A stretch of 63,987 nucleotides of DNA, the filler included, from Vezdaea acicularis (taxonomy: Eukaryota): the NCBI GenBank assembly GCA_026025075.1. It is 4 parts of 4 records of this genome, joined end to end, with 100 filler letters (N's around TTAATTAATTAA, not from the genome) between each part and the next. Parts side by side here need not be neighbours in the genome. Positions count along the whole stretch, not along the records: positions 19,482 to 38,687 come from JAPEUI010000203.1; 3 more parts are not named here. One strand, written 5' to 3'. The translations under genes and the position numbers were made by a program. The notes under the pieces were generated by a model. It saw only the letters and a list, made by a program, of their open reading frames with translations, ran no database searches and had not been told where the DNA came from. This document shows, in pieces, positions 19,382 through 58,042 of the stretch. Every line of letters begins with the position of its first letter. Within the stretch, counting starts at the first letter, position 1.

Positions 19382-19481
19382 NNNNNNNNNNNNNNNNNNN
19401 NNNNNNNNNNNNNNNNNNNNNNNNNTTAATTAATTAANNNNNNNNNNNNNNNNNNNNNNNNNNNNNNNNNNNNNNNNNNNN
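19382..19481. other. Artificial contig linker (N44-TTAATTAATTAA-N44)
   Basis: N-run with a 12-mer that gives stops in all six frames; identical to the two other linkers. Confidence 0.98.
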
Positions 19482-20012
19482 GTAGCATTCTCGCCGGACG
19501 GCAAGCTGGTCGCATCGGCATCGTGGGACGGCACGGTCAGGCTCTGGGACGCGGCCACGGGAGCATCGCTGCAGACGCTCGAGGGCCACTCGGGCTGGGT
19601 CCAGGCCGTAGCATTCTCGCCGGACGGCAAGCTGGTCGCGTCGGCATCGTGGGACCGCACGGTCAGGCTCTGGGACGCGGCCACGGGGGCATCGCTGCAG
19701 ACGCTCAAGACTGCTAATACTATTCGACAGCTATCATTCTCTAATAATGGTCAATATCTAGACACGGATGTGGGACAGTTAGGCATCGACTGCTCTTTTT
19801 CTAGTATCATTTCGCCTCGATCAATGTCTGTAAGGGAAAGGAGAATATATGTAAACGGGACTTGGGTGGTTCAAGAGAAAGAAAATGTTCTTTGGCTTCC
19901 TTCCGATTATCGAGCGATATGTACGGTTGTCCGGAACAATGTTCTAGTGATAGGACATGCATCTGGTTGTGTTTCTATTCTTGGATTCGATGTAGCTGAG
20001 CCTAGCATCTAG
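19482..20012 (+). CDS. C-terminal WD40 repeats of a HET-E/NWD-like NACHT-WD40 NLR, 5'-truncated
   Basis: Frame reads [42 protein letters not shown], then a near-identical second unit, then the typical NWD tail [15 protein letters not shown]...VLWLPSDYR...VIGHASGCV. The NACHT part is inferred, not seen. Confidence 0.88.
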
Positions 20013-26900: not shown

Positions 26901-27842
26901 CTTGATACTATTTCTTTTCAATTTGCTCGACAGATCGGATTTGAGCATCGTAGTTCTAGACTATAGCTAAAAATTTCTGGAAACCTATCAATTATTGGCG
27001 CTGAAAGCATAATTATAGGGTTTCAGTAACTACCGTTGAACCTTTGAAGGCAGAAAGCTGAAGTTGATATACGTTTGTCTGCTGTCTAGCTTGTTTATGT
27101 GCCTCTGAGAATATCCATTCCAAAAAGAGCAGGGCCCATTTATACAGGAATTTGTCGGGGGGACCATCGCTGGTACTTTTGGGAACTCTTTCGGGCGACG
27201 CGTGAGATGCCATGTTTGCACTAACAAGGCTGTCATCTGAAACCACGCAGATACGGTCATGGAAGGATTGATCAGTGAACAGTAAATGAAATCAAGTTCT
27301 TTCGAAGGTCTTTTTGAGATCTTTTGAATGAACTTTCCGATTGGCGACCAAGCATTCTGAAAGCTCATAGACAGGGCTAGATCAATCGACCTAGCTCAAT
27401 GCATACGTGTTGCATCGGACCCCTGTACTGTTAAAATCCTGCCTGCTGTAGCAAGTGGATTTGTGTCACATCCAACCATTGCCGGTGAGGCTCTTTCGAG
27501 GAACTTTTGGGGGTAATCTTTCTGCCTTCTCGATCCTGAGGGCGCGGTAAGCGAACCTTGGTGCGTGGGGCCAAATGGGAACTTTTGAGGACAAAGGATC
27601 AACTTATTATTGCAGACTAGGGTCCCCCTGCGCACTAAAATTTCAGCCAAACGAGAAGCTCTACTGTAGGCTAGCATAATCTACACTCATCTGCCACTAA
27701 CCGGAAAAGTACCATCTGCACGGGTTTTTCACTAGCATCAGTTATCAATAAGCTCTTACGGGATTTTCAATTTGACCTGAGATATAAATGTGAACACTCC
27801 AGTTCAGATATCTTTGCTCCCAGAGGAAAATCATCAATCAAA

Positions 27843-30014
27843 ATGTTACCTCGTGCACCTCCGGAATCACAGCAGGATGTTCGCGTGCACAGCACTAAAG
27901 ATAGCTGGCTAAGCGGTCAGCGCACTGCACACACCACTTTTGCGCCTTCCCCGAGCTCCAACATGTGGGCCGATGGCATCGGGGATCAATCTCCTCTATA
28001 TCATCAGCAAGTCTCTTCATGTCAAATCCAGCCTATGCATTATCATACTATGGCCAATGTATGGTCCGGAAGTCCCGATTTTTTGAGTGAATTCACCATA
28101 CCAGTGGCACCTACAATGTCTTTGGCCTCTATTACAGAATCGGCTCTTCAGTCTTTGCAACATAGTCCAGCTGCGGATAAACCTCAGCGTCCAGCATCAG
28201 GCACGAAATTAAACCGGCCGCGACGAAAGCAACTAAATTCGCGGCACCCTCAATATACGGCAGCAGAGTGGGACAGCTACCGCTCGAAGATCAAGGAACT
28301 TTACATTGATCAAAATGCATCGCTTGAAACGACAATGGAGTCCTTGTCACAGTCTGGTTTCAGTCCTTCGTAGGTCTCCTTGTGCTCTTTCAATTTAATC
28401 TAGACTAGACTACTGACTATTGGAGAAGCAAAAAAATGTATAAAGTCAAGTTCAAGGAATGGGGATGGTCGAAAAATTTGCCCAAGGATAGAGCTCAGTG
28501 GATGCTTAACAGGGCTGAACAGAGAAAACGTCAGTACCCAGAAGGAAGAGATCTAATCTTTGAATTTGGAGAACAATCATGGACAGTAGAGAGGGTCCGA
28601 AAGAGCATTCGAAGAGCAAAAATTGCTGAAGATGAAATTGTTGCTTTAGGTATGTTGCTCGTGATAGTTATTTTGTTTCGCTGATAATTCAATAGATGCG
28701 CCCACCCCATATGACATAACCTACAAACTGTCTCATCATGTCTCCCAATCACCACGCAACGTGCATTCTCCCAATGGGTCTGATGTTCTTGCCGGAAGAT
28801 GGACGCCTGCGCCATCTTCAGGCAAATCTCAACTCCATTTTCTTCAATCGAACTGGAACGGTCACACGCTGGCAGAGATTGAAGCTATCAAGCGTGAGGC
28901 TCATCGGCTCGACTGCGAACGTGATGATGAAAATGCCGAGAAAAGGTATCGCGAAGCTTTGGCTGGCTTCGAAAATCTGCTCTCGCCGACTCACGAGAAC
29001 ACAAACGCTGTCGCGTATCAATTGTCAATTTTCTACGCCGAACATGATCGTATGGATGACGCTGATCTAGTTCTTAATTGGATGGGCGAAAAGCATGTGG
29101 AACGCTGGGGTCTCGACCATCAGAAGACCATGACACATTTCCTCCGTGTAGCAGAGCTGTTCAATAGCTGGTCTCGCAACGACGAGGCAATAGCATTTTT
29201 GTATCGGGTTCTTGATGCCTGGGATAAACACATTTCCGTGAGTACAAGCGATAACACCACACTGAACCGCAAGCCACCTCAAGTAGCTCAGCCTCAAGTT
29301 GCCTCGCCGCAAATAACCGTTCGACAATCTGAACCTAGAGACATGACTAGAGCTTTCACAGAGACAGACAACCCTACGAGAGTAGATTACCAATTAGGCC
29401 TTGCAAAGGCGCACATTACAACCAAAGACAAGACAACTGAACCGCTACTCCTCCGCTTGATTGAGCAATGCAAAAAATACCCAGGAAAGTTGAACTCGCA
29501 GATATTGCAAGCCAGGTGCGAGCTTGTGAATCTCTATCAGCAACTCGAAGATGACGAAAAAGTGGCCAACGCTCTAGAGCAAGCACGAAAAGACTTGGAG
29601 ATGATATTAGAGTCGACTGTCAAGAAAACCGAGCCTTTACTGGAGGCGTGTGTCAAAATAGTGAAGCTACATGTTAAGAACGACTATTGCCAGGCTGCTG
29701 AAAACATGTTCCAGAGGATCGGAGGCGAAGCAGAAGATACTCTAGGGACAGACCACGAAGCCACAATTAGAATTCTAATCCGCATTGGTAAATTCTATCA
29801 AGGTGAGAACATGTGGACTAATGCACAGCCTTGGTTCGAACGAGCGCTTGCAGCCTCAATGACAGCTAATGGACTGGAAGATGCAATGACGAAGAGGCTT
29901 GAGGCAGCTCTTGAAAACCAGCATTACACTGTGACCGCACTAACGCACGAGGAGCTGGAGTCATTTGTCGGCTCTGACACATTTCTTGAAATACGTTGCC
30001 CTGGAGATGATTGA
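27843..30014 (+). CDS. Clr5-domain protein with C-terminal TPR-like helical repeats
   Basis: Clr5 motif EWDSYRSKIKELYIDQNASLETTM...GFSPS|KKMYKVKFKEWGWSKN across an intron. The third exon has TPR-like AEKRYREALAGFENLLSPTHENT and LGTDHEAT...AQPWFERALA. Confidence 0.85.
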
Positions 30015-31872: not shown

Positions 31873-33143
31873 TTAGTTGGCTCTGGTGCATAGCACTAGC
31901 AATGCCACAGACGACTCGTCCACGGTTCCAATATCTTTTGCTGGCTCATATGCAGGTTCCGCAGGTGCCTCGTCCACAGTTTCCGTTTCCTCTGTTAATT
32001 CATAGGCAGATTCTGCGAGCGCCGCATCTACGTTTCTGATTCCCTCTGCTGGCTCATATGCAGGTTCCGCAGGTGTCTCGTCCACAGTTTCCGTTTCCTC
32101 TGTTAATTCATACGCAGGTTCCGCGAGCGCCTCATCTACGGTTCTGATTCCCTCTGCTGGCTCATATGCAGATTCCGCAGGTGCCTCGTCCACAGGTCCC
32201 CTTTCCTCTGTTAATTCATATGCAGATTCTGCGAGCGCCTTGTCCACGGGGTCAATCTCTTTTGTTTGTTCTTCTGTAGGCTCCTCTAACATGTTACCAA
32301 ACGACTTCTTATATCCTTGCATTGTAAGTGGCACACCATAAGGATATGAGCATGAGCTGCCACTTCCACGAATCCAGCCAAATGTATCCGAATGATCGTG
32401 GAAGCGACAAGCCCCTCCTAATTTAATAGACGATGCGTCCGCCTGACCTTTTTGGATATGCTGAAAATAGTCCCACCCAAGGTCTGGAAAATCGTAAAAG
32501 ACCTTCTCCCATTCAGCCCAGTGCTCAGTTGGTTTATTTCGTCTTGACCAAGACAGACTGCTGCTGCCATAGTTGACTGCAAACCCTAAAGAGAACATCT
32601 GCCGTAGGGTTGTACCAGCTGGAACACTGCTATAAACTGCTGTAATAATCTCTGGTGTAACTCTCCACCGGTTATCACTCAAAGCTGTCCGTAGAACATC
32701 GGAGGTCTGGTTCTTAAGATAACAAATGTGATATTTCTCGGCGAAGATAGCTAGATCAATGACAGATTCAATGTCAAAAATAGGTATGCATGGTTCAAGA
32801 GCATGAAGCCAGATGAAGAAGTTGGCAAACGTTACTGGCTTTTCCTCAGGCAGCTTGATGGTTCTCTCGATGGATTCTTTAAACGGCGGGTGGCACATCG
32901 TTTTAAAAACTGAAGAATGCTGTATCAAGAGTTCTTGTGGCACTTGAAAGGACATTTGTGCGGATCCAATAAGGACTGTAAAGCGATCACTTTGCATTGC
33001 CCTATTCAAGTCACTCAGGAAGAACGAAGGATTAACTCTTAGATTACTAACTTGACGTAGATGCATCGTCGTATCTCTGATTCAGACAATACTACAACCG
33101 TGTCAGGAACAGCTTGTAAAGCTTTCTTCTTCTTCTTGTTCAT
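31873..33143 (-). CDS. BTB/POZ-domain protein with acidic repeat tail
   Basis: FTVLIG...FQVPQELLIQHSSVFKTM...FKESIERTIKLPEEKPVTFANFFIWL...LAIFAEKY...LKN; CRFHDH. A short first exon from ATG 33143 joins through a GTTAGT...TAG intron. Confidence 0.88.
31915..32250 (-). repeat. 54-bp (18-aa) coding repeat, alternating A/B units forming a 108-bp dimer x3
   Basis: (T/P)VDEALAESAYELTEETE alternates with TVDEAPAEPAYEPAEGIR; DNA match at 108-bp offset (31973 vs 32081). Confidence 0.9.
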
Positions 33144-34268: not shown

Positions 34269-34859
34269 ATCAGCATTTATCAAGTCCTTCTATGTTACTC
34301 ACATCCCTCAAACCGATGTCAGGCTGCTCAAAGAACTTAGACTGGCAAAACTCATGAACAGTCATGAAGCAGTGAGAAAAGGCGATGTAGCGTGGGCATC
34401 CAAGTAATTATTTCAAAAGCGTGGATATCTGAGTAATCTGCCGTTGATTTTTTGACATCTTGGAGTGGTTCGTTTCAGCCCCAAGGGTGGGGCAATATCG
34501 CCGTCGCCAACTGTAGATCTGCAATCATTATCGCTTGATATCCCCTCATTCTAGAATACACATGTTTGTTTGAGAAACTCCATTAGTAGATAGTGAAGAA
34601 AGCAGTTGATGGTAAAAATAGCAGCCGGTTACAAACACAAAGCATTTCGCTGTGGCAGCTTGTCTTGCGTCCCTTTGTCCTGCGGCTATTCATCCTAGGA
34701 CAGCCATTTGCTTTGCTGTTGCTGCTTGCTGCGGAGTTGATTGCTATACCCGGCTGCTTCTGCCTTCTCTTCCTTGTTTAATGTCCATGCTTAGTGTGAC
34801 ACCAGCTTGACCGGCTGCCACAGTGCTGGCTGCTGGTGCTGCCCCAGCTGCTTGTTCTG

Positions 34860-35135
34860 TCAGGCAGCTTGTCCTGCACCAACTGCCCGTTCTGTGCTGG
34901 CTATTTGTTCTGCGCCACCTCCTTGTTCTGTGCCGGCTGCTCACCCTACACTAGCCCTTCATTCTGTGCCGGCTGCTCTTTTTGCACTAGCTCCTCGTTC
35001 TGTACTAGCTGCTTGTTCTTTACCAGCTCCTCATTCTCTGCCAGCTGCTCGTCCTGCGCCAGCTCCTCATCCTCTACCGGCTGCCCATCCTGCATCAGCT
35101 GTTCGTCCTGTGCTGGCTATTCATCCTGCTGGCTT
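34860..35135 (-). pseudogene. Degenerate 18-bp coding repeat (Q-D/N-E-Q/E-L/P-A/V)n with RIP-like stops
   Basis: About 15 hexapeptide units; three in-frame TAG codons fall at CAG (Gln) positions, and many GAC>AAC, GAG>AAG and CTG>CTA changes are present. Confidence 0.6.
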
Positions 35136-36729: not shown

Positions 36730-36972
36730 TCCTAGGAGAAAATTCCTGGGAAAGCACGGCTCCTAGGAGAAAGCTCCTAGGAGAGCACGGCTCCTAGGGA
36801 AGAAAGAGCCCTAGGAGAAGGTACCTGGGAGAGCACAGCTCCTAGGAGAAAGCTGCTGGGAGAGCCCATGTCCCAGGAGAGAAAGGGTCCTGGGAGCACG
36901 TGCCCTAGGAGAAAGTTCCTGGGAGAAGGTCCCTGGGAGAGCACGGCTCTTGGAAGGGTATTGGTCCCAGGA
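36730..36972 (+). repeat. Cluster of CCT(A/G)GGAGA short direct repeats interspersed with AGCACGGCT
   Basis: More than a dozen CCTAGGA/CCTGGGA motifs at irregular 12-21 bp spacing. Confidence 0.8.
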
Positions 36973-37249
36973 CCTTTGTTCCTGTCTTTATCGTCCCAAC
37001 TGACAGTAATAGGTGCGTATGTAACAGCCTTCTTCTTACTGGTAAACTCACTGTAGTGAGTCCCAGCCTAACACGTACAATGTGAAAATACGGTAGGGGC
37101 CCCACGTACGGTAAGAGTTCAGCTTGGACAGGCTCCAAGAACCTCTACATACATCATTGACCGGCTCTAAGAGACATGCCTGTGTAAGGCAGCAACGTCA
37201 TGTCAATTTAAGCAGAGCATTGCTGGTGAATGCTCAATAGTTGCTGAAC

Positions 37250-37450
37250 TTAGATATTGAGAATCGATGAATTTATTATCTCTTCTGCTCCGCTGCTCAT
37301 ATCACGGTGGTGGTTGGTAGTATCGGCCAGCAACTCTGTCGCTATGTTCATGTCTTCGTTGCGGACAATAATGCTATTTGCTTTGCAATGATTGAGCAGA
37401 AGCTTGACGACCGTCCTGTTCCTTCTAACAGCGGCGTGCGACAGCGGCGT
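37250..37450 (-). CDS. Terminal exon encoding an ankyrin repeat plus tail
   Basis: Directly after an AG at 37452-37451 the frame reads TPLSHAAVRRNRTVVKLLLNHCKAN...ILNI* (66 aa), matching the ankyrin consensus TPLxxAAxxGxxxVVKLLL. Confidence 0.65.
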   Translation of the reverse strand, partial: TPLSHAAVRRNRTVVKLLLNHCKANSIIVRNEDMNIATELLADTTNHHRDMSSGAEEIINSSILNI

Positions 37451-38687
37451 CTAACTATTGTTTCAACGGAGAGATCTGATCAGCTCGGTTTGAGTTCACT
37501 TACAACCTGCAACGGTCAAAGAGGCCGGCGTCAGCCATCGATTCAACGAGAGATCTGCTCAGCTTGGGTCGAGTTTACTTACAAACTGCAACGGTCAAAG
37601 AGGCCGGGGTCAGCCATCGATTCAACGAGAGATCTGCTCAGCTCGGGTTGAGTTCACTTACTTCCTACAACGGTCAAAGAGGCCGGGGTCAGCCATCGAT
37701 TCAACGGAGAGATCTGCTCAGCTCGGGTCAAGCTCACTTACTCTCTGCAACGATCAAAGAGGCCGGCGTCAGCCATCGATTCAATAGAGAGATCTGCTCA
37801 GCTCGGGTCGAGTTCACTTACATACTGCAACGGTCAAAGAAGCCGGGGTTAGCCATCAATTCAACAGAGAGATCTACTCAGAGAGATCGGCTCAGCTTGG
37901 GTCAAGTTCACTTACAACCTACAATGGTCAAAGAAGCCAGAGTCAGCCATCAATTCAACACAGAGATCTGCTCAGAGAGATCTGCTCAGCTCGGGTCGAG
38001 TTCACTTACAAACTGCAATAGCCAAAGATGCCGGCGTCAGCCATCGATTCAACGGAGAGATCTGCTCAGCTCGGGTCGAGTTCACTTACTTTCTGCAACG
38101 GTCAAAGAGGTCTGCGTCAGCCATCGATTCCACGCAGAGATCTGCTCAGCTCGAGTCGTGTTCACTTACTGGCTGCAACGGTCAAAGAGGCCGGGGTCAG
38201 CCATCGATTCAACGGAGAGATCTGCTCAGCTCGGGTCAAGCTCACTTACTTCCTACAACGGGCAAAAAGGCCGGGGTCAGCCATCGATTCAATGGAGAGA
38301 TCTGCTCAGCTCGGGTCGAGTTCACTTACAATCTGCAACGGTCAAAGAGGCCGGGGTCAGCCATCGATTCAACGAGAGATCTGCTCAGCTTGGGTCGAGT
38401 TTACTTACAAGCTGCAATGGTCAAAGAGGCCGGCGTCAGCCATCGACTCAACAGAGAGATCTGCTCAGCTCGGGTCGAGTTCACTTACTCTCTGCAACGG
38501 TCAAAGAGGCCGGCGTCAGCCATCAATTCAACAGAAAGATCCGCTCAGCTCGGGTCGAATTCACTTACTTCCTACAACGGGCAAAAAGGCCGGGGTCAGC
38601 CATCGATTCAATGGAGAGATCTGCTCAGCTCGGGTCGAGTTCACTTACAACCTGCAACGGTCAAAGAGGCCGGGGTCAGCCATCGAT
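37451..38687 (-). repeat. Tandem array of ~80-bp units, each a spliceosomal intron plus a 3-nt microexon (at least 15 units, truncated by contig end)
   Basis: Minus-strand unit GTAAGTgaactcgacccgagctgagcagatctctccgttgaatcgatgGCTGACgccggcctctttgaccgttgCAG-NNN. The triplets lie at 38649, 38569, 38489, 38409, 38330, 38250, 38170, 38090, 38010, 37916, 37822, 37742, 37662, 37583 and 37504 (lowest coordinate of each). Confidence 0.9.
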
Positions 38688-38787
38688 NNNNNNNNNNNNN
38701 NNNNNNNNNNNNNNNNNNNNNNNNNNNNNNNTTAATTAATTAANNNNNNNNNNNNNNNNNNNNNNNNNNNNNNNNNNNNNNNNNNNN
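38688..38787. other. Artificial contig linker
   Basis: N44-TTAATTAATTAA-N44. Confidence 0.98.
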
Positions 38788-57942: not shown

Positions 57943-58042
57943 NNNNNNNNNNNNNNNNNNNNNNNNNNNNNNNNNNNNNNNNNNNNTTAATTAATTAANN
58001 NNNNNNNNNNNNNNNNNNNNNNNNNNNNNNNNNNNNNNNNNN
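57943..58042. other. Artificial contig linker
   Basis: N44-TTAATTAATTAA-N44. Confidence 0.98.

Follow-up and report, generated by a model that had tools for sequence, protein, structure and literature searches.

The closest described counterpart of the locus reported here is the nank (NACHT-ANK) family of Tuber melanosporum, whose genes contain tens of alternatively spliced mini-exons of 3 nt (Iotti et al., 2012, Fungal Biol 116:261; as related in the consulted parts of PMC4986451, PMC9815663, PMC10197012, PMC3689799, and PMC13449251). Five T. melanosporum transcript variants in GenBank (AFB35594-98) are identical over 629–636 residues and diverge only past the second ANK repeat, which fits the account of the family in these review excerpts. 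In the review sections consulted, up to 2026, codon-sized microexon splicing is presented as a peculiarity of the T. melanosporum NLRs, and one paper, in the part available, terms it lineage-specific (PMC13449251). In the literature searched, with subscription papers and supplements outside its scope, no such array was described outside Tuber. For fungal NLRs, excerpts of two papers describe high-internal-conservation (HIC) WD40, ANK, and TPR repeats that are diversified by unequal crossing-over (PMC9815663, PMC13449251). In brown algae, exon shuffling was reported for NB-ARC-TPR and related receptor genes (Zambounis et al., 2012, as cited in passages of PMC10197012 and PMC13449251), and a 3-bp exon of homothorax in Drosophila is listed among the ultra-short microexons of animals and plants in the portion seen of PMC7392893.

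We analyzed a stretch of 63,987 nt, called the window below, which is filed under Vezdaea acicularis and consists of four contigs joined end to end. One of these contigs ends in a tandem array on the minus strand that resembles a satellite. Judged from its sequence, and with a probability of roughly 0.7, we read this part of the window as the 3′ portion of a minus-strand NLR-type ankyrin gene, in which an array of at least 16 short introns, separated by exons of one codon, would lie between two ankyrin repeats. The introns are copies of a single unit of about 77 nt, and every copy is equipped with a donor, a branch site, and an acceptor. The features are as follows.

38652..38687, minus strand: partial array intron, its 3′ 36 nt with branch GCTGAC and acceptor CAG, ended by the contig edge
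37504..38651, minus strand: 15 three-nt microexons and 14 complete near-identical introns (76, 77, or 91 nt)
38649-38651, 38569-38571, 38489-38491, 38409-38411, 38330-38332, minus strand: microexons 1-5
38250-38252, 38170-38172, 38090-38092, 38010-38012, 37916-37918, minus strand: microexons 6-10
37822-37824, 37742-37744, 37662-37664, 37583-37585, 37504-37506, minus strand: microexons 11-15
37962..37989, minus strand: 14-nt internal duplication, giving the unit 9 intron its 91 nt
37451..37503, minus strand: last intron, a shortened unit of 53 nt (GTAAGT ... TTAG) without the GCTGAC motif
37250..37450, minus strand: terminal exon in phase 0, 66 codons and TAA, starting TPLSHAAV..., with one ankyrin-like repeat and a divergent tail
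38688..38787, no strand: artificial joiner between contigs (N44, 12 bases, N44), outside the gene

The anatomy of the array agrees with a preliminary description of this DNA in all details. The donor GTAAGT is present in 15/15 minus-strand units, and exactly 3 nt separate each acceptor (11 CAG and four TAG) from the next donor. Units of 80 nt (10), 79 nt (three), and 94 nt (two) correspond to introns of 77, 76, and 91 nt, and unit 10 holds a diverged copy of the 14-nt insertion of unit 9. Every intron that precedes a triplet has the branch motif GCTGAC, once as GCTAAC (unit 10), about 24 nt ahead of the acceptor. The triplets, in the order first listed, are GTT GAA AGA CTT ATT GAA CCA AAA TTT GTT TAT AGA GAA TTT GTT; nine are distinct and none is a stop codon. 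The preliminary description erred, however, in taking position 38688 for a sequencing gap. It is the start of the joiner, which stands between separate contigs and recurs in identical form at 19382-19481 and 57943-58042; the DNA past 38787 is therefore unrelated to the array. The array continues up to the edge of its contig at 38687, so that the contig lacks the 5′ part of the gene.

Throughout the 64-kb window, YAG-NNN-GTAAGT occurs 15 times on the minus strand, always inside the array and nowhere else, and a pattern of three such donors gave 10 matches compared to none in 100 shuffles. TRF reports an 80-nt tandem array and, at a higher order, periods of 160 and 319 nt; these periods, together with the identity of units 1 and 5, show block duplication. 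The four best environmental DNA runs, which all had small shares, matched only in pieces of 36–201 nt with 85–99% likeness, which fell on parts of the array and on 37191-37296.

Variability within the array was quantified on an alignment of 14 units with three triplet columns and 76 intron columns. The triplet had been proposed as the most variable part of the unit, and this is borne out: the mean pairwise difference was 0.68 in the triplet and 0.093 in the 76 intron columns, a roughly sevenfold contrast, and only two of 100,000 random column triples matched the triplet in variability. The donor columns and the acceptor AG did not vary (0.0), and the branch hardly did (0.03). Substitutions at splice signals stay within consensus, as first noted; only two signal columns vary, C/T in YAG and G/A in CTRAC, compared to 24 of the 62 other intron columns. 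As the introns are only about 9% diverged, recent amplification by itself would partly account for intact signals in 15/15 units. In five unit pairs the introns are at least 95% identical; one of these pairs had the same triplet and four had different ones. Homogenized introns next to saturated codons call for diversifying selection on the codon, for conversion that spares the codon, or for both.

We scanned a metagenome collection for three GTAAGT donors, each following YAG-NNN, with introns of 54–84 nt, and obtained at least 114 loci with this pattern (labelled L). Chains of five or more units with four or more different triplets were assigned to a variable class, which comprised 46 chains in 34 of the 114 matches listed. 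Among the matches listed, the variable chains had three stops in 445 triplets, compared to about 26 expected from position-specific composition (p = 6e-9), and 3/273 when each distinct triplet was counted once per chain (p = 5.7e-5); these class statistics are not fully independent, as the variable arrays were chosen by triplet diversity and as relatedness, or in one case a shared contig (L061/L062), links some of the loci. Control windows offset into the introns of the same arrays contained 6, 26, 18, and 32 stops in 445. A monotone class of 12 chains consists of plain satellites, with nine stops in 113 triplets among the matches listed. Constant-triplet satellites that match the pattern include L012 (45 units), L003, L111, and L058, the last of which sits between bacterial ABC-transporter and response-regulator genes; they form a negative class for scans of this type.

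In all 34 arrays picked among the matches listed for at least six units and at least four distinct triplets, triplet diversity exceeded intron diversity; given this choice, the direction of the contrast is partly built in, while its size is not. Triplet diversity was near saturation (0.5–0.7) even in arrays whose introns differ by 2–5%. Since the sites were found by motif, the conservation of donors and acceptors in the information-content profile of diverged arrays is partly circular; this applies less to the retention of AG-NNN-GT in 64 units that the strict motif had missed, which was 55/64 compared to 7/64 in a displaced control. Both the avoidance of stops and the retention of splice signals are shown in relatives of the window array. 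Two of the off-consensus units have 6-nt exons and four are damaged, with two 2-nt exons (L100) and two AT donors (L105). Taken together, the environmental arrays suggest that such structures are common, old, and under coding constraint in environmental fungi.

The 6-nt exons occur once each in L008 and L094, in otherwise 3-nt arrays and with the same signals around them, which suggests either two codons fused through intron loss or an in-frame insertion. The third base of the microexons is rarely C (2%) among the 445 triplets of the matches listed, with T at 48%, A at 33%, and G at 18%; the window array has only A or T there. Probably the −1 position of the donor constrains this base.

The intron consensus of the window array has relatives among these loci. 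Over shuffled controls, z was 13 for L038, 7.2 for L015, 7.0 for L057, 6.6 for L076, 6.2 for L087, 5.9 for L019, 4.1 for L027, and 4.0 for L066, while 13 other arrays stayed below 2.5. The introns of L038 are 79.7% identical to those of the window over 231 nt, and its array ends in the same way, with the same truncated last intron followed by an exon starting TPLSRAAS.... This exon encodes two ankyrin repeats (Pfam Ank, E 4.6e-11), and out-of-frame remains of a further repeat are present in L038. The order in L057 is that of the window, with a truncated last intron and an exon that starts TPLLRAAR. The other side of the array can be seen in L019, where NPHP3_N (1.8e-5), GPIID_WHD, and ANK (3.7e-18) lie upstream and the last upstream exon closes with a full codon at the end of an ankyrin repeat, before the microexons begin. 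NPHP3_N/WHD/ANK domains lie upstream in three loci of this intron family (L019, L076, and L027), while the window contig ends inside the array. Pieced together from these loci, the predicted layout of the family reads NTPase, WHD, ankyrin repeats, array, ankyrin repeat(s), stop. The codon array would then be placed where the loop between two ankyrin repeats is expected. In the ankyrin consensus, this inter-repeat loop corresponds to the finger, which makes up much of the binding face.

The terminal exon of the window matches the Pfam Ank profile with E 0.003, below the curated cutoff, with residues 1-25 on profile positions 4-27. It is 37% identical to the L038 exon from residue 1 on (E 4e-6) and looks degenerate past the first repeat relative to L038. 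Unspliced, the minus strand has 29–37 stops per frame across the array. The proposal that the triplets are phase-0 codons is upheld by four observations: they are best read in this way in an ankyrin gene, the TPL exon starting at Ank position 4 in the window, L038, and L057; the upstream exons of L019 and L026 finish on a complete codon before the first array intron; stops are few in the variable arrays (3/445, p = 6e-9, 34 loci among the matches listed); and off-consensus units retain AG-NNN-GT in 55/64 cases, compared to 7/64 in the displaced control. The microexons of the window accordingly lie in frame beside an ankyrin exon, one whose own Ank match is below the Pfam cutoff.

To characterize the host genes, flanking frames on the array strand of 32 loci, many with very short flanks, were scanned against Pfam. 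Ankyrin, GPIID_WHD, or NPHP3_N domains were found beside the array in 7/32 (L019, L026, L027, L038, L040, L076, and L082), weak P-loop matches in L004, L033, and L049, and a HET domain beside the doubtful four-unit chain of L020; no Pfam domain was found in the flanks, often very short, of the remaining scanned loci. The gene at L027 (P0134) encodes 602 residues with NPHP3_N and WHD. Its closest named relatives are from Wilcoxina, Trichophaea, and Sphaerosporella (61–64%), and it is 43–48% identical to entries named "NACHT-ANK domain protein transcript variant" from T. melanosporum, T. magnatum, and Choiromyces venosus. The L019 ORF is 27% identical to Tuber nank variant 4 over 253 aa (E 6e-17), and L019 and L076 are only 26–32% identical to the Pezizomycete nank clade; their best named matches, weak and from a biased local set, are from Glutinoglossum, Loxospora, and Geoglossum. 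The array of L026 is preceded by an exon that closes with a complete codon and followed by one that begins in phase 0. The off-contig 5′ part of the window gene is presumably of NLR type, and the window array would be transcribed and alternatively spliced, as has so far been shown for Tuber.

The same array build was found beside NLR domains in unrelated intron families. Two of these, L026 and L082, have similar short terminal exons of the form L-x-x-L-V-Q-R-D-x-V, unlike the TPL type of the window family. In L033, L049, and L004, whose introns are strongly diverged, the upstream frames resemble G-domain NTPases (P-loop, DxxG-like, and TKxD-like motifs; weak Pfam MMR_HSR1/Arf) and have no ankyrin repeats. 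A second gene family, the G-domain NTPases, may therefore make use of codon-sized microexon arrays.

By its organization, the window array is best classed as a member of the published Tuber-type microexon system and is not a new kind. As in Tuber, a series of codon-sized exons lies next to ankyrin repeats in what would be an NLR-type ankyrin gene, with canonical donor, branch, and acceptor around tandem 3-nt exons in 15/15 units, and environmental arrays of the same intron family stand in NPHP3_N/WHD/ANK genes (L019, L076, L027). Unlike Tuber, which belongs to the Pezizomycetes, the contig is filed under V. acicularis (leotiomyceta). The arrays of the window, L038, and L057 precede a further ankyrin repeat, whereas the Tuber variants diverge in the tail after the last recognized repeat, and the N-terminal NTPase is absent from the window contig. 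The preliminary description mentioned the Tuber microexons and knew of no array built from cloned tandem introns. This claim to novelty is weakened, because environmental NLR loci of the Tuber nank family commonly have this build. What is new is the array on a contig filed outside the Pezizomycetes, its position between ankyrin repeats, and the evidence for constraint on the many environmental arrays.

The other described systems resemble the window array in part. Like HIC repeats, as portrayed in the excerpts mentioned above, it has near-identical tandem DNA units in what would be the sensor part of an NLR, with few hypervariable positions on a homogenized background. However, its unit is an intron of 76–91 nt plus one codon and does not encode a whole structural repeat, whereas the HIC unit is described there as a structural repeat of 33–42 residues, and the diversity of the window array could arise both in the DNA and at the RNA level. 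Exon shuffling in brown algae likewise rests, in the passages citing it, on a modularity of exons proposed to diversify NLR-like sensor domains, but there an exon is a whole repeat, while in the window it would be a single codon in a loop. The microexons of animals and plants, in the source portion seen, are functional 3-nt exons spliced by normal machinery, yet they are single conserved exons with no tandem array, cloned introns, or hypervariable content. The folding predicted for the window introns was no stronger than that of shuffled sequences (z 0.2–1.6), and a special intron secondary structure was rejected. Introner-like elements of fungi are near-identical spliceosomal introns that have multiplied across a genome, are dispersed in unrelated genes, and have an unusually stable predicted structure. 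The window array shares with them many near-identical canonical introns in one genome; in contrast, its copies are in tandem in one gene, with none elsewhere in the 64-kb window, so that neither dispersed copies nor a stable fold were found.

Several other readings of the locus were weighed. It is unlikely that the array is spliced without combinatorial choice, either with all microexons always included as a fixed insert of at least 15 residues or with the whole array removed as one intron, the triplet variability being a by-product. No regulated choice is evident from the sequence, in which all donors and acceptors are near-identical. Removal en bloc, however, would place no coding constraint on the triplets, yet only 3/445 are stops among the matches listed, and the spacing of 3 or 6 nt is kept in off-consensus units. 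Fixed splicing is further at odds with the homologous Tuber gene, whose five GenBank transcript variants differ only in the post-ankyrin tail, and with the alternative microexon splicing in Tuber reported in the excerpts of the five papers cited at the outset. A recently amplified array in a pseudogenized, unexpressed 3′ fragment of a nank-like gene is improbable as well. The sub-threshold Ank match and divergent tail of the terminal exon, the out-of-frame repeat remains in the related L038, and the repeat-rich, compositionally odd contig all speak for such a decaying or dead paralogue, but the donors (15/15), the AG of the acceptors (15/15), and every branch motif remain intact, substitutions being confined to consensus variants, and the terminal exon is open for 66 codons in the ankyrin frame.

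A plain non-coding minisatellite with a 3-nt mutational hotspot and splice-like motifs present by chance is very improbable, although TRF calls the array as an 80-nt repeat with periods of 160 and 319 nt, and although plain satellites with the same motif exist (12 monotone chains, 9/113 stops; L058 in a bacterial setting). Variation in the window array is not indifferent to splice and codon positions (triplet pi 0.68 vs. 0.093); it peaks in the columns exactly between AG and GT, the array abuts a phase-0 ankyrin exon in three loci (window, L038, and L057), and unrelated intron families repeat the build beside NLR domains. Scarcely credible, finally, is a repeat protein encoded on the plus strand. 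All three plus-strand frames are nearly open across the array, with ORFs of 419, 296, and 237 codons, but the best Pfam match has E 0.0077, below the cutoff, and the peptides are low-complexity and rich in Arg and Ser. The openness results from the copying of one stop-free unit, and as the 80-nt unit is not a multiple of 3, the variable triplet falls into a different plus-strand frame in each unit. Lacking a credible Pfam match and having this unit length, the plus-strand ORFs were rejected.

The array contig (19482-38687) is compositionally apart from the rest of the window. Its G+C content is 0.47 compared to 0.54–0.60 in the other three contigs, and its tetranucleotide correlations with them are 0.31, 0.22, and −0.07, while the others correlate among themselves at 0.81–0.92. 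The chitin synthase on the first contig has its best named matches (73–79%) in Vezdaea aestivalis, Piccolia, Sarcosagium, Sclerophora, and relatives, and Vezdaea is placed in the leotiomyceta, outside the Pezizomycetes. The array contig also carries WD40, AAA, Clr5-TPR, and BTB genes. Its AAA protein is 100% identical to an entry named for a metagenome-assembled genome of V. acicularis, followed among named matches by Trichophaea (71%), Glutinoglossum (66%), Wilcoxina (66%), and Glonium (66%), while its TPR gene has named relatives in Zopfia, Flavoplaca, and Sticta (43–44%). The AAA and TPR genes thus point in different taxonomic directions. The contig may be an accessory, receptor-rich compartment or a mis-binned contig of another fungus.

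Receptor-type repeat genes in the window include a TPR_12/TPR_10 frame of 715 codons that runs off the first contig (2-2146, minus strand), WD40 repeats at the start of the second (19482-20012, plus strand), and a Clr5 gene with TPR_12 (27675-30014, plus strand). Further tandem repeats were observed just downstream of the ankyrin gene stop (36730-36940, units of 14/17/31 nt), in a plus-strand ORF without Pfam match (34829-35110, period 18/36/72 nt), and in a BTB-like ORF (31939-32249, repeats of 54/108 nt).

Returning to the ankyrin gene with its codon array, a mechanism can be outlined. Short fungal introns would be recognized as units (intron definition), so that each array copy could be removed alone and its codon left in the mRNA; where a donor paired with a later acceptor, a run of codons would be skipped. 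Every splice product would remain in frame, and 15 codons would allow up to 2^15 ordered subsets. Since the codons would lie in the loop or beta-hairpin between ankyrin repeats, immediately ahead of TPL in the next repeat, the array would furnish the usual binding face with a loop that varies in length and sequence. In the DNA, units would multiply and be homogenized by unequal crossing-over or conversion, while the codon would diverge to near saturation. Given the unremarkable folding of the introns, nothing beyond standard splice signals seems to be needed. Related intron units occur in NLR genes that are only 27–32% identical to each other (window, L038, L057, L019, L076, L015, L087, L027, and L066). 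Tentatively, the cassette of an intron plus one codon might be an old and widespread diversity generator of Pezizomycotina receptors, with its codons in the ankyrin finger loop. If this is true, interchangeable splice sites that pair stochastically could provide each nucleus or hypha with a different set of receptors from a single locus.

For genome annotation, such arrays look like satellites and break assemblies, as in the window, where an array is cut by the contig end. As 3-nt exons are beyond the models of gene callers, database entries for such receptors are systematically truncated. By means of the simple search pattern, the question can be tested in fungal genomes and long-read transcriptomes. 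The picture of a system confined to Tuber would change with an array whose contig is filed under a lichen-forming leotiomycete, and likewise with dozens of environmental arrays that are poor in stops and retain their splice signals. Together, the Vezdaea-filed and environmental arrays suggest a general post-transcriptional diversification of fungal immune-receptor-like proteins.
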